A DNA stretch of 32,000 bases from Desulfocapsa sulfexigens DSM 10523 (GTDB lineage: Bacteria > Desulfobacterota > Desulfobulbia > Desulfobulbales > Desulfocapsaceae): the NCBI RefSeq assembly GCF_000341395.1, contig NC_020304.1, forward strand, positions 2,940,001-2,972,000. The letters run 5' to 3'. Positions 4,093 to 27,799 of the stretch are shown one piece after another; positions within the stretch are counted from its first letter, which is position 1; every line of letters starts with the position of its first letter. The position numbers and the translations under genes are program-made. The notes below the pieces were generated by a model. That model was not told where the DNA came from and ran no database searches. It saw nothing but the letters and a program-made list of their open reading frames with translations.

Positions 4093-5517
4093 TTACTTAT
4101 AGGTACTTGACTGGATAGCGTGTTTACGCATGAGGCGTTGAAATGCCTGACGTTCCATGCAACTGGCCCTGGCAGCAGCCGTGACGTTACCCTTACTGTT
4201 GTGCAGGCAGTTTTTTAGATAGGAAATTGTAAAATCTGAAATGATGGTCTGTTTTGCATCTTTATAGGGAAGGGAGTGAATATTTTGTGGAAGAGGAAGC
4301 TGGGAGGGATCATAGTTGCAGGTATTGTTACCATCGTCATTTTTTAAATCATGTACAGTCAGGATGTGGTCAGAAGCGAGCAGGACAGCTCTGTTGATAA
4401 TATTCTGAAATTCCCTGACATTTCCCTTCCATGGCTGTTGCATCATGCACTGCATGGCTTCTTTGCTGAAAGACAAATTTTCTCTTTCATACTCAATCGC
4501 ATACATCTTCAGAAAGTGCTGGGCCAGTAATGGGATGTCTTCCTTCATTTCACGTAAGGAGGGGAGTACAATGTTCATTACATTCAGTCTATAGTACAGA
4601 TCCTCTCTGAATTCTCCTTTCTCGATTTTTTCCTCAAGATTCTGATTCGTTGAAGCAAGAACCCGGACATCGACTTTGATGGTTTTGGTCTGGCCAAGAG
4701 GTTGGATCTCTTTTTCCTGAAGGACTCGGAGTAATTTTGTCTGGAGACTGACAGGAATATCGGCAATTTCATCGAGTAAGATAGTTGAGCCTTCGGCTTC
4801 AAGGAATAAACCATCTTTGTCGTTGTCTGCGCCGGTAAATGCACCTTTGCAGTAGCCAAAGAGTTCACTTTCCAGGATTTGCTCAGGAAGTGCAGGGCAA
4901 TTTACGGTGATCATCTTTCTGGCAGCACGCTTTGAGGAAAGGTGCACCGTACGTGCGGCGACTTCTTTACCTGTTCCAGATTCACCCCGAATAAGAAGTG
5001 TAGCATCGCTTTTCCCATAACGGATAAGCAGGTCAACCGCCTGTCGAAGGGGTTTTGACTTGCCAATAAATTGAGTTGAATTGCAATTATTAATGACCTG
5101 TTGCTGCAACCTTTGGTTTTCTTTCAGCAGTTTGGTGCGTTCCATGGCACGTTTGACAACTTGACTGATTTTGTCATTGTCAAAGGGTTTCTCGAAAAAG
5201 TCATAAGCTCCCTTTTTGAGTGCCTTGACGGCCATCTCAACGGTACCGTAGCCAGTCATGATAATAGTGGAAATAGTTGGGTCCGTAGTCTGTATAAATT
5301 CGAGAAGCTGCAGACCATCGGTTTCAGGCATAATAATATCAGTAAGGACGACGTCGGGCTTCCAGCCTTGTATCTGTGTCTGTGCCTCTGCGCCAGTATT
5401 GGCAAGTGATATGTCGCAGTCACATTTTTTAGCCAATACCTTTTTCAGGAGATTGAGAAGATCTCGTTCATCATCAACAATCAGAAGTCGCATCTTTTTC
5501 TCTGCTTCACCATTCAT
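4093..5517 (-). CDS. Sigma-54-dependent response regulator (NtrC family: REC + AAA+ + Fis-type HTH)
   Basis: REC domain (LLIVDDE, phospho-acceptor LTDIIMP), Walker A GESGTGKE, ESELFGY/GAFTGA loop, and a C-terminal HTH (GNVTAAARASCMERQAFQRLMRK). The alternative start M9 (MRLLIVDD) at 5493 is possible. Confidence 0.93.
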   Translation of the reverse strand: MNGEAEKKMRLLIVDDERDLLNLLKKVLAKKCDCDISLANTGAEAQTQIQGWKPDVVLTDIIMPETDGLQLLEFIQTTDPTISTIIMTGYGTVEMAVKALKKGAYDFFEKPFDNDKISQVVKRAMERTKLLKENQRLQQQVINNCNSTQFIGKSKPLRQAVDLLIRYGKSDATLLIRGESGTGKEVAARTVHLSSKRAARKMITVNCPALPEQILESELFGYCKGAFTGADNDKDGLFLEAEGSTILLDEIADIPVSLQTKLLRVLQEKEIQPLGQTKTIKVDVRVLASTNQNLEEKIEKGEFREDLYYRLNVMNIVLPSLREMKEDIPLLAQHFLKMYAIEYERENLSFSKEAMQCMMQQPWKGNVREFQNIINRAVLLASDHILTVHDLKNDDGNNTCNYDPSQLPLPQNIHSLPYKDAKQTIISDFTISYLKNCLHNSKGNVTAAARASCMERQAFQRLMRKHAIQSSTYK

Positions 5518-5520
5518 TGG

Positions 5521-6504
5521 CTATTTCTCTGCTACCTTGAGCATGGCCTGGAAGTAATGCTGAACAAAGCGACCGGATATGGTGTCGAGTATCGAGAAGG
5601 ATGGTATCTCCTCGGGCGGGAAGGACCCAGTCAAGGCAAAGAAGACATCTCGTGAAAGGGTGCTTATCATAGATGTTATTTTCTCAGTGTTTCTCTCATC
5701 TGTCAAGTTCCTGCAGTGAACAGGGCGTTCCCTGGCGATGAGAGAGCACGTTCCATTTTGTAGAAGAGGACAGGTGGTGAAAATTTTATCGTTGGTATAT
5801 TTTTGTGCCAGGGATGCAGCCTTATGGATAACGGCTTCACGAGCACTGCTTGTCAGTGAGAGGTTCATATTATGACTGACAAATACTGCTTCGATTAGTT
5901 GTAGTTCAAAGTATTCATGACAGCATGGTTCGTCTTTGATCCATTGCGCGTCTTCTTCATCACTCTGCCTGGCAAACTCTGAGACTATTGCCTGATATTC
6001 TACAAAAAAAGGAGTTAAATCTATGGTACTGTCGTGCTGTATACTGGCTTCACGGGCGATGAGCTTTCCCTGTTTCTTGCCGTACTTCTTGAGGAGCTTC
6101 CATTGACTGTAATTTGTTGGTGTGGCCCGCGTTGTTTGTAAGGTTTTCTCAGCAAGTTTCAAACCCAGACCACGCCTGAGCAGATAGGCCGAGACAAAAG
6201 TTCCTGTGCGACCAATACCATGACGGCAGTGAACCAGAACCTTTTTTTTTAGATAAATTGACTCATCAAACCAGTGCAGAGCTTTTTCCATTGCCTCCAT
6301 TTGGGGAGCACATTCGTCGTGGACAGGGAGGTAATATACCTCAAACCCTGCCTGCTCTTCAAGCTCGTGAAGGTCACTGAATTCAGCACAGAGATTGACA
6401 ATGGCATTGATTCCCTGTTCTTTTATGGAATCCAGTTCTTCATAGGACATAGGGGCATGTCCAACTGCCAGTTGATTTGTTATCCAGGTAAGTTCATAAG
6501 ACAT
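5521..6504 (-). CDS. Dual-specificity (Cys-based) phosphatase fused to a Cys-rich YkgJ/UPF0153-like domain
   Basis: The N-terminal ~150 aa carry the CX5R P-loop VHCRHGIGRTGT. The C-terminal ~170 aa contain CCHEY and CPLLQNGTCSLIARERPVHCRN, which resemble the putative Zn/Fe-chelating CxxCxxCC family. The stop is 3 nt from the EBP start. There is no Shine-Dalgarno sequence upstream; CTCCTCCT precedes the ATG. Confidence 0.8.
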   Translation of the reverse strand: MSYELTWITNQLAVGHAPMSYEELDSIKEQGINAIVNLCAEFSDLHELEEQAGFEVYYLPVHDECAPQMEAMEKALHWFDESIYLKKKVLVHCRHGIGRTGTFVSAYLLRRGLGLKLAEKTLQTTRATPTNYSQWKLLKKYGKKQGKLIAREASIQHDSTIDLTPFFVEYQAIVSEFARQSDEEDAQWIKDEPCCHEYFELQLIEAVFVSHNMNLSLTSSAREAVIHKAASLAQKYTNDKIFTTCPLLQNGTCSLIARERPVHCRNLTDERNTEKITSMISTLSRDVFFALTGSFPPEEIPSFSILDTISGRFVQHYFQAMLKVAEK

Positions 6505-6530
6505 AGGAGGAGCCCTGATGGTCTACTGAG

Positions 6531-8981
6531 TTACAGCACCCGAAAGAATTTATCGATTTGTTGTTCTACCATTTCAGTATCCTTGAGGCGCATATCCATC
6601 TGTTTGGTTACTCCCAGAAGCTTTCCCAAAGACTCTATGCGTTCCATAAGACTGTCAGCTGAAATACCGCTTATTCTGGCGTCGAGAAGATCTCCTTTGA
6701 TTGTAACATCAAAACCAAGGCGGCTAAGTACTTTGTCCAGAAAAAGGATTCGAAGCTCGCGTCCTTCAAATTCACCACCGCCTCCGGCAAAACGCAATGT
6801 GCAATAACTGGTGGTGGAATCTGGTTCACAAAGAGCATCGATAACAGTGAAATGATATCCAAAACGGATGTTCATATTCAAGTAATCTTTTCCAAGAACG
6901 GCATAACTTGCAGAATCGGAATTTGATTGAAAGGCAAAGGCATCACTCATTGCCATGCGGTCATATCCCTTCCAGTCATAATAGGTCTGTTCGCCCCAAC
7001 TGATATCAGAATGATTAAAACCACGCCATAACGCCTGAAAGGGAGATGAACGTATCAGGTCCACTGTTATTATCTGGAGTGCGGAGGCATGTTTATCAAG
7101 TCCTTCATCCACATCTACAATAAACACTTCGAAGGGAAGCTGGGTCTGAAGTTTCTTTTTCCCACCCTTGATGGTGCTGCAGCGATCCCCTATGGAAAAC
7201 ATGCTCTGGACCGCCATTTCATGGGAAAAACGGATAATGTCATGCAATGAGCGACAGGATTCCGGCGCAAAATCTTTTGACTGTGGATCGAGTAGCTTTA
7301 AAGGTGTTATAAAATCAAGGACAGTTCGCAGCTTACTGAAAAATGGGAGATCTTTATCTCTTTTATAAACAGGGGAAGGCTTTACTTTAGGAGAGTGTGC
7401 TCCTGAGTAGACCGTGCGTGTATCTGCCACAAGAGTGATAACCTCGCCATGTTGAATGCGGGAAATGTCTTTTCCAACGCCAAGGAGGAGTGGGACTCCA
7501 AACTCTCTGCAGACGGTGGCGAAATGCCCGGCAGCACTCCCGAGTTCAGCAATAACTCCATCGACCCGATGGAGAACTCGCACATAGCTTGGAAGGGTTT
7601 CATGGAGCACCAGAATGTGGCCCGGTTCTATTGTGTCCAGAGGATTTTCTGCATCAGGAACCCATGCCCTGGCAGAGGCAAATCCTGATGAGGCCATTAC
7701 ACCACCATGAAAGAGTAACGATTCTTTATTGATAGACAGCTCAGAAGGTATGTTGTTTTCAGATTTGTAAAGATGTAATTCCCGAGTTTGAAGGAAAACA
7801 AAGGTTCCATCACCTTGCAGTGCCCATTCGATATCCTGAGGCCTGTCGAAATGGCGTTCAATGCGAAGAGCCATTTTACCGAGATCCTCTATCTGGGTCG
7901 TGGTGAGGAGTTTTTGTTTTGAGCTCTGCGCAGCAACTGGCAGCGTTGAGTTTTTATCAACTGTAAAAACCTCGGGTATTACAGTACCGCTGACAACTGC
8001 ATCACCAAGGCCAGAGGTGGCGTGGATATACAGTTTGTCTTCTTGAGTTCCTGAGGGATTGATGGTGTAAACAACACCTGCCGTGACTGCATCAACCATG
8101 GTCAGTATCATGACCGCCATGGGAGTTTCTTCGTCGCTGAGGCCGCAGTTAATTCTGTAGGCAAGTGCCTCGGGGCTGTATTTACTGCAAAGTACATCAA
8201 GGTAGGCATCAAGGAGTTTGTCTGTTTCCACGTTGAGATAGCTGGAGTATTGGCCGGCAAATGAGCATTGCCCATCCTCGCTGAGAGCACTGCTTCGGAC
8301 AGCGAAGCGCATGTGTGAGCCTTTTTCGGTCTGAAGTCTTTTCCCGGCATATTTAAGAGCCTCGATGATTTCGGGGGGGATTTCTGCTCCCTTGATCAGG
8401 TCTATAATAGCAACAGAAATTTCAGACAAAAGCCGGGTGGATGTGATGTCTGTTTTAGCGAGTAATGCATTAATGGCCGGTCGCAGATCATTATATTCGA
8501 GAAGATAGGAAAAACAGTTTGTTGTGAGGACATATCCTGAAGGAATAACAAGGTTGAGTTGCTGGTGTAGCTCTGCCAGAGTACTGCTTTTTGCACCAGC
8601 AAGTTGTGTGGTGAGTGCCTCATCATGTAATGGAAGGATAAAAGGTTTGCCGAAATGTAACTCAGGGGGGGCGAAAAAAAAGCGACAATAAAAGTTAAAC
8701 TTATTGAAATAGGCGGGCAGGTCTATATAGGAACCGGGTGCCATACGTTGAAGGTTGATAACCATACCTTCAACGTTTTCAGCAAGGGATTCATATTTCA
8801 GGGAAATTTTACAAAAATCTTCTTTCTTTCCCTGGTAGTAGAGGCTTTCAAGGTCTGCCATGATTTCATGGCATTGACTGTCAAAGGCCAGCAAATTCTG
8901 GAAAGCCTCATAGGTTGTTCGCAACACAGCACCGGGTGCGAATACCCTGTATGTCCAATACTTGAAAAGATTGGTCAACAT
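6531..8981 (-). CDS. PEP-utilising-enzyme-family dikinase-like protein (ATP-grasp PPDK_N domain + swivel His domain + unrecognised N- and C-terminal domains)
   Basis: LAGAKSSTLAELHQQL...IPSGYVLTT, FAVRSSALSEDGQCSFAGQYSSYLNV and DIEWA match the nucleotide-binding domain of PEP synthase/PPDK. GSAAGHFATVCREFGVPLLLGV matches the mobile phospho-histidine domain, with the His retained. I do not recognise the last ~270 aa as the PEP/pyruvate TIM barrel. Confidence 0.8.
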   Translation of the reverse strand: MLTNLFKYWTYRVFAPGAVLRTTYEAFQNLLAFDSQCHEIMADLESLYYQGKKEDFCKISLKYESLAENVEGMVINLQRMAPGSYIDLPAYFNKFNFYCRFFFAPPELHFGKPFILPLHDEALTTQLAGAKSSTLAELHQQLNLVIPSGYVLTTNCFSYLLEYNDLRPAINALLAKTDITSTRLLSEISVAIIDLIKGAEIPPEIIEALKYAGKRLQTEKGSHMRFAVRSSALSEDGQCSFAGQYSSYLNVETDKLLDAYLDVLCSKYSPEALAYRINCGLSDEETPMAVMILTMVDAVTAGVVYTINPSGTQEDKLYIHATSGLGDAVVSGTVIPEVFTVDKNSTLPVAAQSSKQKLLTTTQIEDLGKMALRIERHFDRPQDIEWALQGDGTFVFLQTRELHLYKSENNIPSELSINKESLLFHGGVMASSGFASARAWVPDAENPLDTIEPGHILVLHETLPSYVRVLHRVDGVIAELGSAAGHFATVCREFGVPLLLGVGKDISRIQHGEVITLVADTRTVYSGAHSPKVKPSPVYKRDKDLPFFSKLRTVLDFITPLKLLDPQSKDFAPESCRSLHDIIRFSHEMAVQSMFSIGDRCSTIKGGKKKLQTQLPFEVFIVDVDEGLDKHASALQIITVDLIRSSPFQALWRGFNHSDISWGEQTYYDWKGYDRMAMSDAFAFQSNSDSASYAVLGKDYLNMNIRFGYHFTVIDALCEPDSTTSYCTLRFAGGGGEFEGRELRILFLDKVLSRLGFDVTIKGDLLDARISGISADSLMERIESLGKLLGVTKQMDMRLKDTEMVEQQIDKFFRVL

Positions 8982-16914: not shown

Positions 16915-19473
16915 ATGATAGGGAAAGCCTTAACAAGGGTCTTTGGAAGCAAGAATGATCGTGTCCTCAAACAGATCAAACCATTGGTCAATAGAATTAA
17001 TGAACTTGAAAGTACGGTAGCATCACTCGATGATGCACAGCTTGCTGCAAGAACCGTTGAATTTCGTGAACGGTTTGCCAAAGGCGAAAATCTTGACCAG
17101 CTTCTTCCGGAAGCTTTCGCAACCATGCGAGAGGCCGGTAAACGTGTACTTGGTGAGCGGCATTACGATGTGCAGCTTATTGGTGGCGTGATCCTTCATC
17201 AGGGGAAAATTGCTGAGATGAAAACCGGAGAAGGGAAAACACTTACCTCGACGCTTCCTGTCTATCTCAATGCTATTCCCGGAAAAGGTGTTCATCTGGT
17301 AACGGTGAATGATTATCTTGCTGCCCGTGATGCCGAGTGGATGGGAAAGGTTTATAATTTTCTTGGTATGTCTGTTGGGAAAATTATTCACGATATGGGC
17401 GATGATGAAAGGAGGCAAGCCTATGCTGCTGATGTGACCTACGGGACGAATAACGAGTTTGGCTTTGATTATCTGCGCGATAACATGAAGTTTGAAATGA
17501 GTGATTTTTGTCAGCGGGGATTTAACTTTGCCATTGTGGATGAGGTTGATTCCATTCTGATCGATGAGGCCAGAACACCTCTTATCATTTCGGGACCTGC
17601 GGAAATATCCACAGAAATGTATGGAAATGTTGACAAGATTATGGGCTCTTTTAAAGCAGATGAACATTATCTTGTGGATGAAAAGGCAAAACAGGTAACC
17701 CTTACTGAAGAGGGTGTTGCTCTTGGCGAAGAGCTTCTTGGTGTTGAAAATCTCTATGAGCCTGAGTCTATTGAGCAGTTGCATCATCTCAATCAGGCGT
17801 TGAAGGCACATACTCTTTTTCAAAGGGATATAGATTATATCGTTAAGAATGGCGAAGTTGTTATTGTTGATGAATTTACTGGTCGCACCATGGAAGGCCG
17901 TCGATACAGTGATGGGCTGCATCAGGCATTGGAAGCAAAAGAGCATGTGAAAATCGAAAAAGAAAACCAGACACTTGCCTCCATTACCTTCCAGAATTAT
18001 TTCCGCATGTATGACAAGCTCTCAGGAATGACCGGAACCGCTGATACAGAGGCCTCGGAATTTAAAAATATCTATGACCTTGATGTGGTTATTATGCCTA
18101 CCAATATGCCCATGGTCAGGAAGGACTTTGCCGATGTAATATACAAAAATATTGCTGCAAAGGAACGGGCGGTGATTCGTGAAATCAAGGCCCTGCATGA
18201 AAAAGGTCAGCCGGTACTGGTCGGTACCATTTCCATCGATGTCTCTGAAAAAATTTCGAGATTACTGAAAAAAGAAAAAGTAGAGCACGAGGTCTTAAAT
18301 GCCAAACAGCACGATCGTGAAGCTGAAATTATTGCTGACGCCGGGCAGTATGGAAAGGTGACCATTGCCACCAATATGGCTGGACGTGGTACTGATATAA
18401 AACTGAGTAAGGAATCAAAAGAAGCCGGTGGACTCCATATACTGGGAACTTCCCGCCATGAATCTCGACGTATTGACAATCAGCTTCGCGGTCGTTCAGG
18501 GCGTCAGGGCGATCCAGGGTCCTCCCGTTTCTTCCTCTCCCTGGAAGACGATTTGCTTCGTATTTTCGGGTCCGGGAGAATATCAGGAATTATGGATAAA
18601 CTTGGTATGGAAGAGGATGAGCCAATCGAACATAACCTCATTTCCAGAGCCATTGAAAACGCCCAGAAAAAGGTGGAAGGGCACAACTTTGATATACGTA
18701 AGCATCTCCTCGAGTATGACGATGTTATGAATAAGCAGCGCGAGGTCATTTATCGACAGCGCAGGGAAGTGCTTTCCGGTAGTGATCTGGCCGAGGTGGT
18801 GCAGGATATGATTGCTGACCAGAAAGAACTGCTCATTTCATCATTCTCTAATTCTCGTCTTGCCTCTGAAGACTGGAACTGGGACGGCTTTGAGGAGCAG
18901 ATGCTTGAGCTTTTCCAGGTCAAGGTTGATTGGGATGATTCTGATAAGTCAGGAATGGATGCAGAAAGTTTTCGGGAAAAGGTTTCTGCAATGATTGATG
19001 ATCATTATAAGAGTCAGGAAGAGTATAACGGTGTAGATACTCAACGACATCTCGAACGGGTTATTTTACTGCAGATGGTTGATACACACTGGAAGGATCA
19101 TCTCCTCTCCATGGATCACCTGAAACAGGGAATTGGACTGCGTGGTTACGGCCAAAAAAAACCACTGGATGAGTATAAAAAGGAGGGATACAATCTCTTT
19201 ATCCGCATGATTGAAACCGTGAAACAGGAGACTGTAAAAACCCTGATGCGCGTCAGAATCATGCAGGAAGATGACGTGGAACGACTGGAAGCCGAGAGAC
19301 GAGAACGACTGGAAACAGAGCGTGCTCAGGCAAAACTGAACAAAGGGCCTGCCGGCGAGGAGACGCCCGTTGCTCAGCCGGAAAAGAGAGAAGGGGATAA
19401 GATAGGCCGTAATGCCCCCTGTAGCTGTGGATCCGGAAAGAAATTTAAGAAATGTTGCGGAAAGCCCAACTGA
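16915..19473 (+). CDS. secA: Preprotein translocase ATPase SecA
   Basis: MKTGEGKTL Walker [20 protein letters not shown], the [10 protein letters not shown] motif, and the C-terminal zinc finger [14 protein letters not shown]. Confidence 0.98.
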
Positions 19474-19503
19474 TAGTTGATATTTTCATTTTAGGTTGTT
19501 TGG

Positions 19504-19548
19504 AAAAACGGGTTTTGGAATATCTTCCAAAACCCGTTTTTTCTTTCA
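19504..19548 (+). terminator. Rho-independent terminator after secA
   Basis: AAAAACGGGTTTTGGAA (19504-19520), loop TATC, TTCCAAAACCCGTTTTT (19525-19541). This is a perfect 17-bp stem running into a T tract. Confidence 0.85.
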
Positions 19549-19748
19549 TGCTCATTAGCTGATATCGAAAGCTTGTGCAATAAACGAGAGGTGTTGGCAA
19601 TTCTGTTCAGGATCGTTATCCCTGTAGAACCGAAGATTTCACTGCAGACTCTCATGTTAAATGGTAATATGAAGAAGGCACCTCAAGCGATAGCATCATT
19701 AAAGAACGCAGGCATTCAATGGTTAAGGCAACAGATCGGAATGTAATA

Positions 19749-19999
19749 ATGATTTCAATACACCCCAGGTTCGCTGAGGCGATTTTTTGAGGTGAGAAAA
19801 AGGTTGAATTCAGTAAGCTCAATATACCGAAAAGCATCGAACACATCGTTCTGTATCTAACGGCACCAGAGAGCAAAGTTGCCGGTTATTTCCGTGTCGA
19901 AAATGTAGTTGAGGCCAGCGCCGCAGAGTTGTGGAGAAATTTCATGACGTATCCGGAACCACTGAGGAGTTCTTCTTCAGCTATTACGGTAAAGGGTAG
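19749..19999 (+). pseudogene. Decayed ASCH-domain-like gene (in-frame TGA, a 1-nt frameshift and 3' truncation)
   Basis: The reading is MISIHPRFAEAIF-TGA-GEKKVEFSKLNIPKSIEHIVLYLTAPESKVAGYFRVENVVEASAAELW, and after a -1 shift near 19937, EKFHDVSGTTEEFFFSYYGKG-stop. The pattern (SI.P.FAE.I..G.K..EFR..., V..Y.T.P...I.G.F.V, LW) matches my memory of small ASCH proteins. No intact ORF is present. Confidence 0.5.
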
Positions 20000-20003
20000 C
20001 TAC

Positions 20004-20192
20004 ACAATAGGGTCGGACTAAGGTACCTAGCTGGTTTGTTGTTGAAGTAGGCTAGAAAACAAAAGATTTTTGCTCTTAGAAGCTCTTTTTTACCCCAAAA
20101 AGAACCTTTTAAGGAAGTGGCTAATGTTCTGATAATAGATATCTTTTTGACTTAAATGACAGTAACTCAGACTGATATCTTGGTCTGACCCG
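20004..20192. repeat. Copy A of a ~190-250 bp intergenic repeat, upstream of the GGDEF gene
   Basis: It shares ordered blocks with copy B: ACAATAGGGTCGGAC(T/C)AAG, CTTAGAAGCTC...TTTTTACCC, and a ~46-nt block (T)AATAG.TAT.TT.TTGACTTAAAT.ACAGTAA.TCA.ACTGAT, of which about 37 of 46 positions are identical by hand alignment. The 5' end GGGTCGGAC is complementary to GTCTGACCC at 20184-20192. Confidence 0.6.
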
Positions 20193-20262
20193 GTTACCAG
20201 GTTCCGTTACCAGTGGCTGGCACGCGGGGCCTGGTTTCTTTTCTTTTGAGAGAGGCACATCT

Positions 20263-21930
20263 ATGATGCGAGTGAATGTCCTGACTGTTGCCCTGGCAGC
20301 CTCCCTGGCCGTGCTCTTGATTTTACCGTTGGCGAGCTTTTTCTTTTTCGTGCCGGCCTATCAATTTATGTTGACCAGCATCACCGAGGAAGAATCCATC
20401 CGGGTCGCCAGTCATCTTGCCACTTCCATTGCCACCGAGGGGACGCCCATCAACCGCAACTCTCTACAGCCTCATAAACATAGAGAAATAAGGGCGCTTG
20501 TTGAGGATTTTAAATTAAGAAAGTTACGGATTTTTTCCGATACCGGCGAAATCGTATTTTCCACGGATGCTTGGGAAATCGGGACTCGCACCACCAGTGA
20601 GTATTTTTTCGAGGTAGTGGCCAAGGGTAAATCCTTGACCAAACTGGTGCATAAGGATACGCCGTCCATGGACGGGCAGGTGCAGCCGATTGATGTGGTG
20701 GAGACCTATGTGCCCATCATGGAAGCGGGCAGGTTCATGGGGGCCTTTGAAATCTATTACTCCATCACCATGCGTAGGGAAAAGTACAACTGGGTGGTCA
20801 GGAGGTACTTGTACACGGTATTTGGAGCGACCTTGGTCCTACTTGTGGCGGTTGGGCTTACCATCCACAAGGCTCGTAGTCATCTGGAGAAACGGAATCG
20901 AGCCGAAAAGGCGTTGCAGAATGCCCATGATGAACTGGAGGTTCGGGTTCGGGACAGGACCGCTGAGCTCAAGGAGAGTAACGAGGCTCTGGTTGCCGAG
21001 AACAAGATGCGTAAGGCCTTTGAGGCGGAGCTAAGATTGGCCGCCAAGGTGATTGATAACATCATTGAGGGCATCTGCGTTACCGATACCAGTGGCACCA
21101 TTGAAAGGGTCAATCGAGGGTTTAGTGATATCACCGGCTATGAGGCCAAGGAGGTGGTGGGCAATAATCCCCGTATCCTCAAGTCAAACCGCCACTCCCC
21201 TGAATTTTACGAGGCGATGTGGAAATCGCTGGGCGCCACTGGTACGTGGCATGGCGAGATCTGGAACCGACGCAAAAGCGGTGAGATCTATCAGGAATGG
21301 TTGTCAATTTCATCAATCAGAAATGAGGATAACCGGATAACCCACTATGTTGGCGTCTTTTATGAACTCAAGAGCCTGCTGGAAAAACAGGAACATCTGT
21401 CCCGCAAGGCCTTTCACGATGCCTTGACCAATCTCCCCAACCGCGAACTCTTCTTTGACCGTCTCGATGTTGCCTTGTCCAAAGCTAAACGCCAGGAGCA
21501 GCAGCTGGCCGTCATTTTTATTGATCTTGATGATTTTAAGCCGATCAATGATACCTTGGGCCATCACTTCGGCGATGTTTTTCTACAGGGCGTGGCAGAA
21601 CGCCTTGTCCTCTGTTGCCGTGAGGAGGACACCGTGGCCCGCTTGGGGGGGGATGAGTTTGTCATGCTCCTTACTAACGTGGGTGGCTTGCCGGATGTGG
21701 TGGCGGTGGTGGAACGGCTTTTCTCACATCTGGGCGTGCCGGTAAGCCATCAGGGCAAGGAGATGACAATCAAGGCCAGTATCGGCATCGCCCTGTATCC
21801 GCAAGACGGAGACGAGGTGGAAGTGCTTCTGAAGAAGGCGGATGCCGCCATGTATGTCGCCAAAAACACGGGCAAGAACAACTATCAGTTTTATCAATTA
21901 TCAGGGCTTGTCATTGGTGATGACAAATGA
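20263..21930 (+). CDS. Membrane-bound PAS-GGDEF diguanylate cyclase
   Basis: N-terminal TM, a ~150-aa periplasmic region, a second TM, a coiled coil, then PAS (VTDTSGTIERVNRGFSDITGY). The GGDEF domain has an intact RLGGDEF active site and an RxxD I-site (REED) five residues upstream. No EAL or HD-GYP domain is present. Confidence 0.93.
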   Translation: MMRVNVLTVALAASLAVLLILPLASFFFFVPAYQFMLTSITEEESIRVASHLATSIATEGTPINRNSLQPHKHREIRALVEDFKLRKLRIFSDTGEIVFSTDAWEIGTRTTSEYFFEVVAKGKSLTKLVHKDTPSMDGQVQPIDVVETYVPIMEAGRFMGAFEIYYSITMRREKYNWVVRRYLYTVFGATLVLLVAVGLTIHKARSHLEKRNRAEKALQNAHDELEVRVRDRTAELKESNEALVAENKMRKAFEAELRLAAKVIDNIIEGICVTDTSGTIERVNRGFSDITGYEAKEVVGNNPRILKSNRHSPEFYEAMWKSLGATGTWHGEIWNRRKSGEIYQEWLSISSIRNEDNRITHYVGVFYELKSLLEKQEHLSRKAFHDALTNLPNRELFFDRLDVALSKAKRQEQQLAVIFIDLDDFKPINDTLGHHFGDVFLQGVAERLVLCCREEDTVARLGGDEFVMLLTNVGGLPDVVAVVERLFSHLGVPVSHQGKEMTIKASIGIALYPQDGDEVEVLLKKADAAMYVAKNTGKNNYQFYQLSGLVIGDDK

Positions 21931-22013
21931 CAGAAATGAGGATGTACACGATAAACTAGTATACGATGGGGTGTGGCACGATAACTGTAAAAAAACAATA
22001 GTTAACAATATAA

Positions 22014-22263
22014 ACAATAGGGTCGGACCAAGCTAAATATCTGTTTTACTGTTTAATGTGAGTTTTAAAGTACCCGTTTTTACACTTAGAAGCTCGCTTT
22101 TTACCCTAAATAAATGTTCTAAGAAATTAGAGATCATGTTGAATGAGGCTTCGGCTTCTTATAATACACTTTTTGAGGGTAAGAGAGCACTCTAAGGCCT
22201 TGTAATAGCTATTTTGTTGACTTAAATTACAGTAATTCAAACTGATGGCTTGTTTCGATCCCG
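22014..22263. repeat. Copy B of the intergenic repeat, downstream of the GGDEF gene and upstream of the propeller-OMPLA gene
   Basis: It has the same ordered blocks as copy A, in the same orientation, plus ~60 extra nt between blocks 2 and 3. The extra segment extends an imperfect hairpin, with CTTAGA...TTTTTACCCT at 22085-22107 against AGGGTAAGA...TCTAAG at 22176-22196. The end complementarity is retained with one bulge (GGGTCGGA with TTCGA-T-CCC). Confidence 0.6.
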
Positions 22264-22308
22264 CCTCCGCCTCTCCAAAGACATGGAAATATGATCTAAC
22301 CATCTGTC

Positions 22309-23787
22309 ATGATTCAAGGATTTTTCATGGACCAAAAGCATCTGATGATTGTTGCAGTTCTGTTTTTACTATCCGGGATTTTCACAAGTATCGTTCCGGT
22401 TCAGGCGCAAATTAATGAAACTGATCAGTCTGGTAATACCATTACGGAAATGCCTAGTGATGTATCAAGTGGCACTTCGGCATCAACCAACATTATCGGC
22501 ACAAACACAACTATTGACAATCCGCTTGGGTTAGTTGTGGATAAAGAATGGATTTATGTAGTCAATAGAGATGGCAACAGTGTCGATATCTTTCCCAGAA
22601 AGGGGAAAGGAAATATCGCCCCGACACGTAGCATTTCCGGGCCGAACACAACCTTAAGTTCGGCTGCCGGGGTAGCTGTTGATGCGAATTGGATTTATGT
22701 GGCCAATCCTGGTGGTCACAATATTCTTGTGTTTCCCTTAACTGGAACAGGAAATATTGCCCCAACCCGCATCATTTTCTCGAGTAATTCTTCGATGTTT
22801 GAACCTTCCGGTGTAGCAGTAAATGAGAACTTGATATATGTAACTAATCGTAACACTCACAGTGTCCAGGTTTTCCCAATCGATGCCACAGGCATGCCTC
22901 CCGAGAATAAGGAGCCTGATAGCACCAGTTATTGGGGAAGGTTAAGCAGCCACGAAGAAAATGCTGTAGGTATGACCTATGACGATGATAGCGATGAACC
23001 ATTCCTCGATTTCAAGGTTTCCTTAAAATACCCAATATTACATGATGGGATTCCAGACTCTCCTTTCTCACCCCGTCTGTACTTCGCGTTTACCGGTAGA
23101 TTTGGACAATACGTGTTCACTCGCGACTCATCCCCTGTGATAGGCAAGAGGTTCAATCCCGAATTCTTTCTTAGAGGGTGGACTAACACCGATCCTAATA
23201 AGGAGGTTTACTACAGTTTCTATTTGGGCCATGAATCAAATGGACAAAGTATAAACTCACAGAACGAATACTATGGCAAGCAGAATAGTCTTAGAGAAGA
23301 CAAGGAGAACCCCTATTATGCAAATGACTACATTAGTAGGGGGTGGGATTACGTTGGGTTTGACTTTAGAATGAAGAGAGTGAAACTTTCTAAGTTTGAT
23401 TTTATTTTTACCCACGAGTTAAAGTTAAGGTACTTTCTTGAATGGGGGCCGCTCCAGAAAGATCGAGAAGATTATAACGACTGGGAAAATGACTCTGAAG
23501 GAAAACCGCGGGAATACGTAGATGGAATTAGTTATAATTTCACAACCAATCTGAAACTCGATGATGATTTTCTAGATTTTATTACTGGTGGGGATATCTC
23601 TATAGACCTTACCACTGGCTACTCGAAGATATTCAAGTATTTGACTATTAGGGGTGAGTATGGGCTATTATTCTGGGATAATCTCCCCATTTCCGTATGG
23701 GCTTCCCATGGGTATAATAGCGACCTGTCCCTTTATTACAAGAAAGTTACCAGTTTCGGGATCCGTTTAACTTTGCGGAGTTTCTAA
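22309..23787 (+). CDS. Secreted fusion protein: three YVTN/NHL-type beta-propeller repeats + outer-membrane phospholipase A (OMPLA/PldA) beta-barrel
   Basis: Signal peptide ending VQAQ. There are three ~45-aa repeats (GV.VD..WIYV.N....S/IL..FP..G.GNIAPTR). The C-terminal half is collinear with E. coli PldA: SSPVIGKRFNPEFFL vs SSPFRETNYEPQLFL, GHESNGQS vs NHDSNGRS (catalytic His/Ser), SRGWDY vs SRSWNR, and a terminal Phe. The more likely start is the ATG at 22327, with AAGGA 7 nt upstream. Confidence 0.75.
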   Translation: MIQGFFMDQKHLMIVAVLFLLSGIFTSIVPVQAQINETDQSGNTITEMPSDVSSGTSASTNIIGTNTTIDNPLGLVVDKEWIYVVNRDGNSVDIFPRKGKGNIAPTRSISGPNTTLSSAAGVAVDANWIYVANPGGHNILVFPLTGTGNIAPTRIIFSSNSSMFEPSGVAVNENLIYVTNRNTHSVQVFPIDATGMPPENKEPDSTSYWGRLSSHEENAVGMTYDDDSDEPFLDFKVSLKYPILHDGIPDSPFSPRLYFAFTGRFGQYVFTRDSSPVIGKRFNPEFFLRGWTNTDPNKEVYYSFYLGHESNGQSINSQNEYYGKQNSLREDKENPYYANDYISRGWDYVGFDFRMKRVKLSKFDFIFTHELKLRYFLEWGPLQKDREDYNDWENDSEGKPREYVDGISYNFTTNLKLDDDFLDFITGGDISIDLTTGYSKIFKYLTIRGEYGLLFWDNLPISVWASHGYNSDLSLYYKKVTSFGIRLTLRSF

Positions 23788-24220
23788 GCAAACTGGGAAT
23801 AACACACTCCCTGTTACAACAACCATGCACCAGATGAACTGGTGATTGCACCCTTCTCTGTCCGGAATGTTGAAATGAACTTAATGTGTACAATTAATCC
23901 GTTAGGATTGTTTAAGTTGGTATATCCTGTTGTTCCGATAGTGGTCAAAAGGCTGATCCTGATTTCACCCCTAGAAATACCAAAAAAAGCTTTTTTGAGA
24001 TTAATAGTCCTATAGTGTTTATTGATGAGGCGCATAGTAATTTCCTCACAAAGACTCATTACTAGAAAGAGATAAGTAACAATGGAACACCCACAAATAT
24101 ATAAGGTGTGTAGATCCAACTGAATTCAGAATTGTTAGTAGAGTAATTCGAAGAGAAATATAAATATTCTGCAAACAAAGCATTAGCTATAGACTTGCAT
24201 AAGTCGCAGGCGGCTGAGCA

Positions 24221-25321
24221 GTGATTGGGCATATAAAAATGAGAACCATGCACAATGCATATATTTACTCTGGTATTCTGAAAAGGTCCTTTCTGTCTCT
24301 GGTGGCAGCCGCACCCTATGTTACGCCTAGAAAGATAAGTAACGTGGCCCAGTGCGAAGTCGAGAAATATCGCAGGGTATTGAGCCCGAAATCTCTCCCT
24401 TATGTTGCCGTCATTGACATTACAAATACGTGCAATCTTTGTTGTCCCTATTGCCCAACTGGGACAAGGCGTGACAGCGGTCGAAAACCGGGGATGATTG
24501 ACATCCCTGTTGTCCGGAAACTGATCGATGAGGTTGGGGAGTATCTGGTCAGCGCTAATCTCTTTAATTGGGGAGAACCCTTGCTTCACCCGAGGATTGC
24601 TGAAATCACCAGCATGTTCCATGATGCACGTATCTATACGACTATCTCCAGCAACCTGAGCCTCCCAAGGCAAGAAGCCCTCGAGAGTGTATGCAACGCT
24701 GGCCTTGACTATTTGATGGTAAGCATAAGTGGCGCATTTCAGGCCGTTCATGAAATTTATCACAAGAAAGCCAGCCTCCAAACAGTCATTGAAAATACCC
24801 GAAGCTTGATCAGTTATAAGAAGGCAAGGGGATTAAAGAGACCTATTGTTGAGTGGAAATACCTTTTATTCAAACACAATCAGGACGAGGTTGAATCCGC
24901 ACGAACACTTGCCATGAAGATTGGCGTGGATGTTTTTAGAGTGGTTAAAGGCGGCGGAGCTACAGAGGCCATTATTGACAATGGCAGTATTCCCAGGAGA
25001 AATATTCGGGCCCCATTTTGTCATCAACTCTGGAATACGGTGGCGGTCAATGCTGACGGAGGGATCTCTCCATGCTGTTTTCTATTCTTTAAGGAGGATG
25101 ATTTCGGGGACTATCTTCAGGATGAGATCAGACAGATTCGCAACAGTGGTCGTTCTGTTGCGGCGCGGACTTTTTTTAGCCCTTCCTGTATCAATCAGCT
25201 TCAACAGGGGCTTCGTCACCCCTGCTTAAAATGCGAACTGGTACATGGCCAATCTCATCTAAAAGATTACCTGAGATCCAATTCTGCTGCAAAAAAGGGG
25301 CACCGAACCGGAGGACCATAG
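24221..25321 (+). CDS. Radical SAM enzyme with a C-terminal SPASM/twitch-like Cys region
   Basis: CNLCCPYCP supplies the CX3CX2C cluster motif, and NWGEPLLHP is the SAM-binding GGE-like motif. The C-terminus has C-x12-G-x4-CC (CHQLWNTVAVNADGGISPCC) plus CLKC. The track start is a GTG; ATGs at 24239 and 24248 are alternatives, and no strong RBS is present. Confidence 0.85.
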   Translation: MIGHIKMRTMHNAYIYSGILKRSFLSLVAAAPYVTPRKISNVAQCEVEKYRRVLSPKSLPYVAVIDITNTCNLCCPYCPTGTRRDSGRKPGMIDIPVVRKLIDEVGEYLVSANLFNWGEPLLHPRIAEITSMFHDARIYTTISSNLSLPRQEALESVCNAGLDYLMVSISGAFQAVHEIYHKKASLQTVIENTRSLISYKKARGLKRPIVEWKYLLFKHNQDEVESARTLAMKIGVDVFRVVKGGGATEAIIDNGSIPRRNIRAPFCHQLWNTVAVNADGGISPCCFLFFKEDDFGDYLQDEIRQIRNSGRSVAARTFFSPSCINQLQQGLRHPCLKCELVHGQSHLKDYLRSNSAAKKGHRTGGP

Positions 25322-25623
25322 AAGCGTTAGAATTACGAAGACAGTTTACCTGTTTTCCGAGTTGGGATTGCCAGTTGAAGGTTTAAGCACGTTAACAGGA
25401 CAAATAGGTATGCTGCTGTGAATCGCCCCCGGACCCGTTATTTCAGAGTTGTCGTGTCGGTTATATTTCCATACCAGGAAAGCAAAAGGGGGCAAATCTG
25501 CTTTTGGCTTTAGTTTGGCCTCAAAGGACAATTAATGGGTAGACCGCAAAGTTGATTTATGGGCCGAAATGGGTAATAGAGAGTTCAAACGGCCAAAAAT
25601 CACCGAACAAGCCAATAACCTGA

Positions 25624-25708
25624 TCGCAAAATTCGTCGGTTTCTCAAAACTTAATGTTCCGTGCTAAACGTATAGTTTTGAGCAAAGCCGTACCACGCAT
25701 TTTTGCGA
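25624..25708. other. Nested stem structure in the convergent intergenic region
   Basis: The outer stem pairs TCGCAAAA (25624-25631) with TTTTGCGA (25701-25708). The inner stem pairs CTCAAAACT (25643-25651) with AGTTTTGAG (25674-25682), and CGGTTT/AAA(G)CCG extends it. No T tract follows on either strand. Confidence 0.3.
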
Positions 25709-25823
25709 CAGATTATCGAAGCGTTAACACTGCAATTTAAAAGAGAAATCAGATTCTATTACGTACGTTGGCTAAATCTGCCGGTTTTTATCGAACCGTA
25801 TTACAATATACCTCTATCCGTGT

Positions 25824-26760: not shown

Positions 26761-27729
26761 TTAGCTTAACGGGGTACCATATTGCTTCATCTGCTGTTTC
26801 ATGATTTTTAATTCGCGGCTACCGGAAATAACAGTATCCTGATCTATTTTGAAATTAAGGCTTCGGCTTCGTCCCCTGTATTTTACTGAACTGAGGATGA
26901 GCTTCATCGTCTCGCGTCGTGCAAGGTGCTTATCATCCGAACGGATAATCCACCATTTGGATTGTTTAGTGTGTGTTTTCTGAAGAAGAATTCTTTTCTT
27001 TTCTGTAAATTCGTCCCAGAGATCCTGAGCCTGGAGATCTACTTCGCTGAGTTTCCATTGGCGCAGAGGGTCATTTTTTCTCCTCTCAAAACGCTTTGCC
27101 TGCTCCTCTTTGCTTACTGAGAAATAGAGCTTCAAAAGTATAGTTTTGCCGGCGTCGAGGATGAAATTCTGTTCGTATGAGGTAACTTTCGTTAAAAAGC
27201 GCCGATACTGTTCAGGGGTGCAGAAACCCATGACAGGTTCAACCATCGCGCGGTTATACCAGCTTCTGTCAAACATGACGATTTCACCGGCATGGGGGAA
27301 ACGCTCTATATAGCGTTTCATGTGCAGTTCTGTTTTCTGGGTTTCATTAGGCTTGCCCAGAGCCTCGACCCGATAGCGCTTTTCATTCATATACCGTGCA
27401 ACCCGACGGATTGTTCCACCTTTTCCGGAGGCATCACGACCATCAAAGAGAATAATCATCTTTTTCCCGGTTGCTTCAAGGTGATTCTGCATTTTGATAA
27501 GTTCTGCCTGGTAGGGCTTTAACTCTTCGGAGTTGTAATACTTGAGAAGTGCAGCTTCGACTATTTCTTCTTTGTGCCGATCTTTTAGTACCGAGAGGAT
27601 TTTGCGACTTTTTTCACTGGGTGGTTGTGACTTGAAGTCCTTGTCGAGTTTATGGACGAGTTTGCGAATTATTGCGGTACTACCTTGGGATTCATTTGCT
27701 TGGATTTTTTTCTTTTTTGGGGGAGTCAT
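26761..27729 (-). CDS. ppk2: Polyphosphate kinase 2, copy 2 (tandem paralog)
   Basis: FDGRDASGKGGTIRRV and FDRSWYNRAMVEPV, collinear with copy 1. The track ORF extends to 27783, but the ATG at 27729 (MTPPKKKK) has AGGTGA 8 nt upstream and is preferred. Confidence 0.9.
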   Translation of the reverse strand: MTPPKKKKIQANESQGSTAIIRKLVHKLDKDFKSQPPSEKSRKILSVLKDRHKEEIVEAALLKYYNSEELKPYQAELIKMQNHLEATGKKMIILFDGRDASGKGGTIRRVARYMNEKRYRVEALGKPNETQKTELHMKRYIERFPHAGEIVMFDRSWYNRAMVEPVMGFCTPEQYRRFLTKVTSYEQNFILDAGKTILLKLYFSVSKEEQAKRFERRKNDPLRQWKLSEVDLQAQDLWDEFTEKKRILLQKTHTKQSKWWIIRSDDKHLARRETMKLILSSVKYRGRSRSLNFKIDQDTVISGSRELKIMKQQMKQYGTPLS

Positions 27730-27799
27730 AGTGTTTGTCACCTGCGGAAAAGTTTTTGTTAAAGAAGATGGTATCAGTAACACTATTTAACATCAACTA

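Follow-up and report, generated by a model that had tools for sequence, protein, structure and literature searches.

Two repeats bracketing an imported PAS-GGDEF gene in Desulfocapsa sulfexigens are very probably decayed miniature TIRtrons

Quentin et al. 2018 (PMC6006769) equate subclass 2.1 of the TnpA-REP proteins with the TIRYTs described by Di Nocera 2013, and a GGGGWSAS motif occurs in the terminal inverted repeats (TIRs) of many, though not all, TIRYTs (Di Nocera, De Gregorio & Rocco 2013, PMC3733652). REPINs, with their RAYT transposases, are another close parallel (Nunvar 2010; Bertels & Rainey 2011, PMC3116915). Here, two repeats that bracket a PAS-GGDEF gene are compared with these systems; they lie in a 32,000-nucleotide stretch of the D. 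sulfexigens DSM 10523 genome (the window). They are very probably decayed, non-autonomous miniature copies (“mini-TIRtrons”) of an IS-like element of ~0.94 kb, and bystanders beside an imported GGDEF gene. The repeats belong to an already known element type, TIRYT/TIRtron, of which they are a well-resolved but ordinary case.

A profile search (nhmmer) places the repeat copies at window positions 20007-20193 and 22017-22263 on the same strand, within 3 nt of the bounds given in a preliminary description of this locus (20004-20192 and 22014-22263). That description had reported a same-orientation pair sharing three ordered blocks, and the blocks are indeed collinear, with 78%, 74% and 80% identity over 46, 50 and 59 nt. 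Chance is a poor source of such matches: the 15-mer ACAATAGGGTCGGAC occurs exactly twice in the window (0.03 expected), as does a 30-nt block of the right module (0.00 expected). When 13 copies drawn from five genomes are aligned, they show sharp common ends and inverted termini. Copy 1 (20007..20193, + strand; 187 bp) consists of the L and R modules and is shorter than copy 2 because a middle module of ~63 nt, M, is missing. Its left TIR (20010..20025, +; GGGTCGGACTAAGGTA) and right TIR (20176..20191, +; TATCTTGGTCTGACCC) each have 2 mismatches to the consensus, and a terminal stutter, GGTTACCAG ... GTTACCAG, lies just outside the right one (20192..20217, +); the copy gives nhmmer matches with E values of 1.6e-29 and 1.9e-11 and folds as single-stranded DNA with a z score of -2.0 and a 16-bp terminal stem. 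Copy 2 (22017..22263, + strand; 247 bp) has the complete L-M-R form, covers profile positions 1-249 (E 1.5e-61) and folds with a z score of -3.0. Its left TIR (22020..22035, +) is a perfect GGGTCGGACCAAGCTA, with 0 mismatches; the right TIR (22246..22261, +; TGGCTTGTTTCGATCC) is degenerate, with 4 mismatches here and just 2 in a 97%-identical strain. Both copies lie in intergenic DNA.

Where do such units come from? The parent element spans ~0.94 kb, carries 16-18-nt TIRs with the core GGGTCGGACCAAGCTA and has one gene, of 262-266 aa. An intact element is present in the same genome at C1:3588493-3589428, where TIRs at 3588493-3588508 and 3589413-3589428 flank the gene, here of 262 aa at 3588524-3589309. 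The D. sulfexigens genome has two intact and about five broken transposase copies. TIRs likewise flank the gene at loci L049 and L055. Judged from its sequence, the gene product is predicted to be a RAYT-like Y1/HUH tyrosine transposase of the TIRYT/TIRtron type (subclass 2.1 of Quentin 2018). Pfam Y1_Tnp matches the 266-aa ORFs of two congeneric contigs (G005:C72 and G020:C217) with E values of 2e-9 and 2e-10 (best 1.6e-10), the domain occupying residues 12-122. The NCBIfam REP_Tyr_transpos model gives 62-70 bits, under its curated equivalog cutoff of 80 bits; the IS200 model gives just 17-21 bits against a cutoff of 55, and a PDB sequence search returns only marginal matches (ISDra2 TnpA, E ~0.1). 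The motifs read in translation, NHIH, FWE and YIDLNM (in YIDLNMVRAG), fit subclass 2.1, and Pfam finds no HTH or DnaA_C-like domain, a trait of that subclass, in the C-terminal ~140 aa. Seven of the eight GGGGWSAS positions are matched by the reverse complement of the right end, cGGGGTCGG, and by GGGTCAGA of copy 1.

The breakpoints tie the miniature form to this parent. On the G005 and G020 contigs the 266-aa ORF lies between L and M-R, with its 3′ end extending into M/R, and comparison of the breakpoints with this ORF identifies the L and M-R modules of the mini form as the two ends of the parent. The mini form arose by an internal deletion of ~730 bp, in which the start codon and some 230 codons were lost; it retains module L (left end and 5′ leader), modules M and R (the final ~35 codons) and the two TIRs. 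In copy 2, the transposase gene remnant is recognizable at 22118..22245 (+ strand) as a DNA match to the 3′-terminal ~35 codons of that ORF at L049 and L055, and 22118-22189 gives a weak tblastn match to transposase residues 225-248. Copy 1 has lost M in addition.

The two copies are not sisters. They are 71% identical over the whole element, and each is nearer to copies from other species than to its partner (a G005 copy is 82-83% identical to the window copies), so they are old, independent, decaying insertions that share an orientation; the tree of copies is star-like with long end branches. The repeat is present in 13 of 24 same-genus genomes, with at most 10 matches in each, often at contig ends; 23 of 30 genus genomes carry the transposase, which is multi-copy and frequently broken, and its homologues number more than 8000, mostly on ~1-kb contigs. 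The suggestion that the repeats belong to a dispersed element, to be examined by counting copies, therefore holds for the genus. It does not hold for the 4.02-Mb genome itself, in which neither BLAST nor nhmmer finds a further complete miniature copy beyond the two, 2 kb apart. Such proximity is unlikely under uniformly random insertion.

The behavior of the family can be read from its copies. Two species share one subfamily at 95-99% identity, with unrelated flanks. A search at every offset revealed no target-site duplication of 4-9 bp (a match in 1 of 14 copies at most, no more than re-paired flanks gave). Short outward stutter duplications mark 42% of ends. Within seven contig clusters the copies are co-oriented, 11 of 11 agreeing with the first; set against the direction of replication (origin ~1.22 Mb, terminus ~3.20 Mb), orientation agrees at two loci and disagrees at two. 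The best-preserved copy has a single-strand hairpin z score of -5.0. Going by the enzyme family, the transposase would act in trans on the mini copies and mobilise them via single-stranded DNA in which the TIRs close a hairpin; they would move without target duplication and, accumulating in tolerant accessory DNA, would be bystanders rather than the vehicle of the gene. Within the species, no mobility is seen: in the 97%-identical strain both copies occupy their sites in the same arrangement, without excision polymorphism.

The bracketed gene (20263..21930, + strand) encodes a membrane-anchored protein of 555 aa with PAS and GGDEF domains (Pfam GGDEF, E 1.8e-51). The active site, RLGGDEF, is intact, with REED (an RxxD I-site) five residues upstream, and the product is predicted to be a diguanylate cyclase (c-di-GMP synthase). 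The preliminary description had remarked on the GC-rich sequence and GC-heavy third codon positions of this gene, and the full measurement agrees: GC and GC3 are 51.7% and 63.1%, versus 45.3 and 43.5 for secA and 42.1 and 43.4 for the downstream gene. The genome has 2114 long ORFs, whose GC3 averages 45.2 (sd 6.4); among them the gene ranks at the 96th percentile by GC and at the 99.4th by GC3, and it is compositionally atypical. The windowed profile rises from ~0.35 to ~0.52 at ~20190 and falls just past the stop codon at 21930. Orthologues in other lineages are 80, 74, 68, 67 and 55% identical, and a search of 24 same-genus genomes gave none. The nearest (80-67%) lie on contigs of 55-61% GC in unrelated contexts, and five non-syntenic orthologue contexts are without repeat hits, which argues for import; the similarity is confined to the coding sequence, the GGDEF flanks, searched for a transfer junction, having no homology to the orthologue contigs. 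The PAS-GGDEF gene was acquired horizontally from a higher-GC relative, probably within the Desulfobulbales, and has been partly ameliorated.

The gene is part of a variable islet of 6.3 kb (19474..25823) that runs from secA to the first ppk2 gene. The conserved left anchor, secA (16915..19473, + strand; Pfam SecA domains), is 72-87% identical at the amino-acid level in 27 of 29 congeneric genomes. Synteny, as had been proposed, is informative: one relative (G007) has only ~170 bp between secA and the ppk2 homologue, another (G014) has a 2.4-kb SulP/STAS filler (a SulP transporter) at the same site and a third (G009) has ~0.6 kb, so the interval is empty or differently filled. Given the atypical GC3, an islet that is absent or different in relatives and the lack of a congeneric orthologue, the gene can be regarded, as the earlier description had it, as an accessory, variable trait at this locus. 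Downstream of copy 2 lies another accessory gene (22309..23787, + strand), NHL-repeat/phospholipase-A1-like by Pfam, with no orthologue among 29 congeneric genomes. Upstream of copy 1 is an ASCH-like pseudogene remnant (19749..19999, + strand) with an in-frame TGA and a frameshift; it matches profile positions 1-56 of 103 below the Pfam cutoff (E 0.0098), has an intact homologue, 52% identical, in G022 and stops at the left border of copy 1. With the ASCH remnant ending at its left border and the GC step falling at its right one, copy 1 sits exactly on a junction of unrelated segments, and may have had a role in a rearrangement.

Did the repeats bring the gene, or can they move it? A composite running from the left end of copy 1 to the right end of copy 2 could be excised and pasted by the Y1 transposase, or incoming DNA could have been joined at element ends. 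The position of copy 1 at the point where the truncated ASCH remnant gives way to the high-GC segment, the bracketing of the GGDEF gene by the only two mini copies of the genome, the co-orientation within clusters and the frequent bracketing of single genes in relatives (including another PAS-GGDEF and an NHL-like gene) all speak for such a role. Yet co-orientation is expected anyway under strand-specific single-strand transposition; no second occurrence of the copy 1-GGDEF-copy 2 block was found; the five orthologue contexts lack the repeat; and the repeat family is native to a low-GC genus while the gene comes from high-GC relatives. The copies, 71% identical, are also decayed, with 4 mismatches in the right TIR of copy 2 and a deletion of the left TIR of copy 1 in the sister strain. 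A carrying role is therefore unlikely. A broader version extends to the whole genus, with co-oriented TIRYT mini-elements bounding single-gene modules, the Y1 transposase moving the enclosed gene as ssDNA from the left end of one copy to the right end of the next and the stutter duplications left as a scar; it is distinctly unlikely, but, if true, it would constitute a cassette-like route of gene shuffling separate from integrons. Of the earlier proposal that the gene arrived as a discrete unit, what stands is an imported accessory gene, on the evidence of GC3, islet and orthologues. The proposed routes, cassette-like insertion and recombination between copies, find no support: the copies are divergent, each is nearer to copies from other species, both are Y1-transposase mini-elements, the window is devoid of the genome's own, unrelated attC sites, the orthologue contexts are repeat-free and the 97%-identical strain shows no excision polymorphism.

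The repeats might instead have a function of their own, as a promoter, leader or structured RNA that co-regulates two genes: each copy ends 46-71 nt before a same-strand start codon, TTGACT is found within the right module and the copies fold better than shuffled sequence. This is highly improbable: the block with the strongest conservation corresponds, in full-length members, to the 3′ end of the transposase ORF, the TIR stem accounts for essentially all of the fold, and some copies in relatives precede genes on the opposite strand or follow genes; scans found no sigma-70-like promoters or terminators in either copy and, at the Rfam gathering threshold, no RNA family in the whole window. Hardly conceivable is an origin by local duplication of one intergenic segment, or as integron attC sites bounding a cassette. 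The copies are co-oriented around one gene, and the search for integrases that had been advised did reveal two above the curated cutoff (IntI genes at 0.98 and 3.27 Mb). However, the identities (71% mutually, 82-83% to copies from one other species) and the tree contradict a local duplication. The nearest integrase relic is >70 kb away, and the attC repeats of the genome, ~130 nt long and found at C1:3.267-3.270 Mb with a spacing of 590-870 bp, bear no relation to the window repeats; allowing up to 3 mismatches, the attC cores do not occur anywhere in the window, which contradicts an integron cassette, integrases notwithstanding.

Identification of the repeats as mini-TIRtrons gives a name to what had been left unnamed and separates two issues, the import of a c-di-GMP synthase and the presence of repeats beside it. 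The flanking repeats would be selfish mini-transposons of a little-studied class, TIRYT, and not cassette boundaries; they offer a clean example of gene-less TIR elements traced via breakpoints to a full-length tyrosine-transposase parent. They also call for caution in annotation, as conserved upstream blocks of this kind can be misread as promoters or RNAs. The terminal stutter might inform on mechanism.

How do the mini-TIRtrons compare with described elements? TIRtrons share with them a single RAYT-like Y1/HUH gene between long TIRs, a protein of ~240-265 aa that has a C-terminal extension and the motifs NH[VI]H, W[EQ] and YI[ED]LN, the absence of GTAG REPs, a prevalence of the class in delta-proteobacteria and TIR repeats found as singles, pairs and clusters; the TIR here, at 7/8 positions, may carry a GGGGWSAS-like motif. 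The differences are that the dispersed repeats here go beyond TIR units, being whole internal-deletion derivatives (5′ leader plus last ~35 codons), that HTH/DnaA_C is not detected by Pfam in the C-terminal part and that short outward stutter duplications occur at the termini. As in REPINs, two inverted recognition sequences can close an ssDNA hairpin, the cognate RAYT-like Y1 transposase would act in trans and copies are intergenic; unlike REPINs, which measure ~60-110 bp and number tens to hundreds per genome, the units here are of 190-270 bp and two per genome, and, in contrast to the single-copy, vertically inherited (domesticated) RAYTs of REPINs, the transposase here is IS-like, with multiple and often broken copies. 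IS200/IS605 elements and PATEs also combine a Y1 HUH transposase with gene-less deletion derivatives, co-oriented clusters and a lack of target-site duplication, but IS200/IS605 ends are asymmetric subterminal hairpins rather than TIRs, and the IS200 model score is low. Integron cassettes resemble the locus in having one promoterless-looking gene between same-orientation repeats, with integrases in the genome; the repeat here lacks R″/R′ cores, its full-length members encode a transposase and no integrase is nearby. Finally, the 187- and 247-bp units have the generic features of MITEs (<300 bp, TIRs, non-coding, a parent element) and resemble the classical RUP, NEMIS and ERIC, which are 70-300 bp long, non-coding and gene-adjacent, have 15-30-bp TIRs and derive from autonomous elements; classical MITEs, however, rely on DDE transposases and generate target duplications, whereas the mini-TIRtrons have a Y1 parent and show none.

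The complete genome of D. sulfexigens DSM 10523 (4.02 Mb, 45.4% GC) contains the full repeat unit at two sites only, window 20007-20193 (copy 1) and 22017-22263 (copy 2). The preliminary description of two same-orientation copies with three ordered blocks is correct: the copies share three collinear blocks on the + strand (46 nt at 78%, 50 nt at 74% and 59 nt at 80% identity), and the window has exactly two occurrences of the opening 15-mer of the repeat and exactly two of a 30-nt block from its last module (0.03 and 0.00 expected). The search for further copies that it proposed gave a divided answer: none of the complete units lies elsewhere in the source genome, but the longer copy 2 has multi-copy matches in 13 of the 24 same-genus genomes, often at contig ends (up to 10 matches in G004, 8 in G020, 6 in G005). 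Mapping these matches defines a three-part unit of 250-270 bp with left, middle and right modules (L, M and R); copy 2 has all three, copy 1 lacks M. When 13 copies, drawn from five genomes, are aligned, the ends are sharp, common to the copies and mutually inverted, with a terminal inverted repeat (TIR) consensus of (A)ATAGGGTCGGACCAAGCTAtC on the left and GATAGCTTGGTCCGACCCCG on the right. A subfamily with an extra ~24-nt insert (L046 454-726 and 11652-11924 in G020; L056 1539-1808 in G004) is 95-99% identical between two species, with unrelated flanks, a pattern that implies recent activity or transfer; it sets the true ends of the mobile unit as GGAATATAGGGTC...GACCCCGYATTT.

What is this unit a remnant of? 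In two congeners (G005:C72 and G020:C217), a 266-aa ORF with a Pfam Y1_Tnp match (E 2e-9 and 2e-10) occupies the space between L and M-R, its last ~35 codons crossing M into R. Because the ORF sits there, with its 3' end inside M/R, the L-M-R unit is an internal-deletion derivative of a ~1-kb element that has lost ~730 bp, start codon included. On the source chromosome, C1, one element is intact and retains both TIRs (C1:3588493-3589428); another intact homologue (C1:3036785-3037564) shows 54% identity, and several more, at 3.27 and 3.58-3.59 Mb, are broken. Of 30 genomes of the genus, 23 carry the transposase family, frequently as more than one copy and frequently interrupted by stops. Over 8000 homologues (260-267 aa) were recovered, most on ~1-kb contigs, some labelled RayT or REP-associated tyrosine transposase, with Desulfosediminicola, Desulfotalea and Desulfobulbaceae among the named hosts. 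The family thus behaves like an insertion sequence. No target duplication of 4-9 bp was found at any offset. Folded as single-stranded DNA, the best-preserved copy forms one long TIR-closed hairpin (z -5.0); the terminal stem persists in the window copies, which fold more poorly (z -2.0 and -3.0). As the enzyme family suggests, transposition would proceed via single-stranded DNA and in trans.

The TIR ends also show a family-wide terminal stutter: at 16 of 38 ends, versus 2.2% of random genome positions, the 10 nt immediately beyond the TIR core reappear (at least 8 of 10 matching) 9-35 nt further out (e.g., window 20192-20217 and 21995-22019; L046 19840-19866; L048 14990-15015; L049 4443-4480). 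The stutter copies are mostly in tandem, and their unit varies by copy and sometimes takes in the first TIR bases (e.g., cggggtcg x4); target duplication was rejected as an explanation. All family copies on the chromosome, whether mini, full-length or broken, lie at 2.96-3.59 Mb, no more than ~0.4 Mb to either side of the terminus at ~3.20 Mb given by GC skew, with the origin at about 1.22 Mb. When copy orientation was compared with the direction of replication, two loci fitted and two did not.

The two window copies are only 71% identical to each other, as compared to 82-83% between each of them and a G005 copy, and occupy long end branches of a star-like tree; these relationships exclude local duplication as their source and indicate that the insertions are old and independent. 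In a metagenomic strain (L074/L075) with ~97% identity across the region, gene order is unchanged and neither copy is missing, so the locus shows decay without presence/absence polymorphism: a deletion of 63 nt (window 19980-20042) takes the end of an ASCH remnant together with the left TIR of copy 1, and the right TIR of copy 2 is less decayed than in the window.

The copies lie in a segment, window 19474-25823, which a comparison of gene orders identifies as a variable islet, because the interval between secA and ppk2 differs among relatives: in G007, only ~170 bp separate secA from the homologue of the ppk2 gene at window 26761-27783; in G014, a SulP/STAS transporter gene precedes the two ppk2 genes; in G009, the gap after secA is ~0.6 kb; and in G020, synteny breaks. 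The other large islet genes are likewise unconserved, and 29 genus genomes contain no orthologue of the NHL/phospholipase-A1-like gene. At window 19504-19541, 30 nt past the secA stop, an inverted repeat with perfect 17-bp arms, a 4-nt loop and flanking A and T runs is probably a bidirectional terminator. In G004, an unrelated PAS-GGDEF gene ends within the left end of a mini-element (C5; L048 13506-15261) and an NHL/SdiA-regulated-like gene lies between two mini copies (C188; L056 218-1808); these gene types recall those beside the window copies.

The gene between the copies (window 20263-21930) encodes a 555-aa protein with a ~150-aa outer region between two hydrophobic segments, a coiled coil, and PAS and GGDEF domains; RLGGDEF is intact, with an REED (RxxD) site five residues upstream. 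Its reported GC richness, third positions included, is confirmed: GC is 51.7% (96th percentile) and GC3 63.1% (99.4th percentile of 2114 long ORFs, 45.2 +/- 6.4), with secA and the downstream gene ordinary in both, and GC profiled over 150 nt at a time steps up from ~0.35 to ~0.52 near 20190, then drops back directly past the stop codon. No full-length orthologue exists in the 24 same-genus genomes searched; elsewhere, orthologues form a graded series (80, 74, 68, 67 and 55% identity) in five mutually non-syntenic contexts, on contigs of 55-61% GC. Orthologue GC agrees with that of its contig in four of the five; the fifth (55% identity; L085 5001-6641, from a source-named Desulfurivibrionaceae MAG) has 41.7% GC in a 55.8% GC contig, so the family looks horizontally mobile in both compositional directions. 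Since its orthologues occupy non-syntenic contexts and can be GC-discordant with their hosts, the gene is, by distribution and composition, mobile between lineages; most likely, its source was a higher-GC relative, and it has been partly ameliorated since reaching this 45% GC genome. The 68%-identical orthologue lies next to, and divergent from, genes for a PPDK_N/PEP-utilizer dikinase, a PTP-type phosphatase, a response regulator and a histidine kinase (L077 1-7841, compared with window 4093-8981). These neighbours share homology (40-58% aa) with the dikinase-phosphatase module that occupies window ~1.3-9.0 kb (C1:2941345-2948972) and with a paralogous cluster at C1:732-740 kb; the cyclase family may be functionally linked to this module.

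If the gene is an import, did the repeats bring it? The preliminary description had the gene arriving as a discrete unit through them; import into a variable site stands, and we find no evidence that the repeats were its carriers, with no repeat-profile match in any of the five orthologue contexts. Nor was its cassette-like insertion borne out. The integron integrases it suggested looking for do exist, two above the curated cutoff, at 0.98 Mb (C1:982614-983561, intact, without an obvious array) and 3.27 Mb (intact, 363 bits), plus a broken one at 3.04 Mb. The 3.27-Mb integrase belongs to an integron (C1:3265233-3270000; L080 1100-4700) with at least four attC-like repeats of ~130 nt, 590-870 bp apart, and broken elements of the transposase family lie just past the array (C1:3270585-3274098). 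The window contains no match to the attC cores even when three mismatches are allowed, and the attC repeats are unlike the L-M-R unit, so the copies are rejected as cassette sites.

The elements could instead have assisted a rearrangement at the locus, which we consider improbable. The genome's only two complete mini copies are 2 kb apart, the ASCH-like pseudogene stops at the left border of copy 1, which lies exactly at its junction with the high-GC segment, copies in seven contig clusters across the genus are co-oriented (11 of 11 in the direction of the first), and in relatives single genes, including another PAS-GGDEF gene and an NHL-like gene, frequently lie between copies; yet clustering in tolerant accessory DNA, combined with strand-specific insertion, accounts for this pattern without gene capture.

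The transposase scores 62-70 bits on the NCBIfam REP-associated tyrosine transposase model (below the cutoff of 80) and 17-21 bits on the IS200 model, and has the motifs NHIH (HUH), FWE and YIDLNMVRAG. Subclass 2.1 of these enzymes is characterized by NHVH/NH[YF]H, W[EQ] and YIELNP/Y[IV]HLNP (Quentin et al. 2018, Table 1, PMC6006769), has a median length of 238 aa and no REPs, and is prevalent in epsilon-, beta- and delta-proteobacteria; the same authors identify it with the TIRYTs described by Di Nocera et al. in 2013. TIRtrons are RAYT-like genes between long TIRs, many with a GGGGWSAS motif, and TIR repeat families occur singly, as dimers or in clusters (Di Nocera et al., PMC3733652). The termini of the present element match this motif at seven of eight positions, and the window repeats are miniature TIRtron derivatives, members of an already known class.
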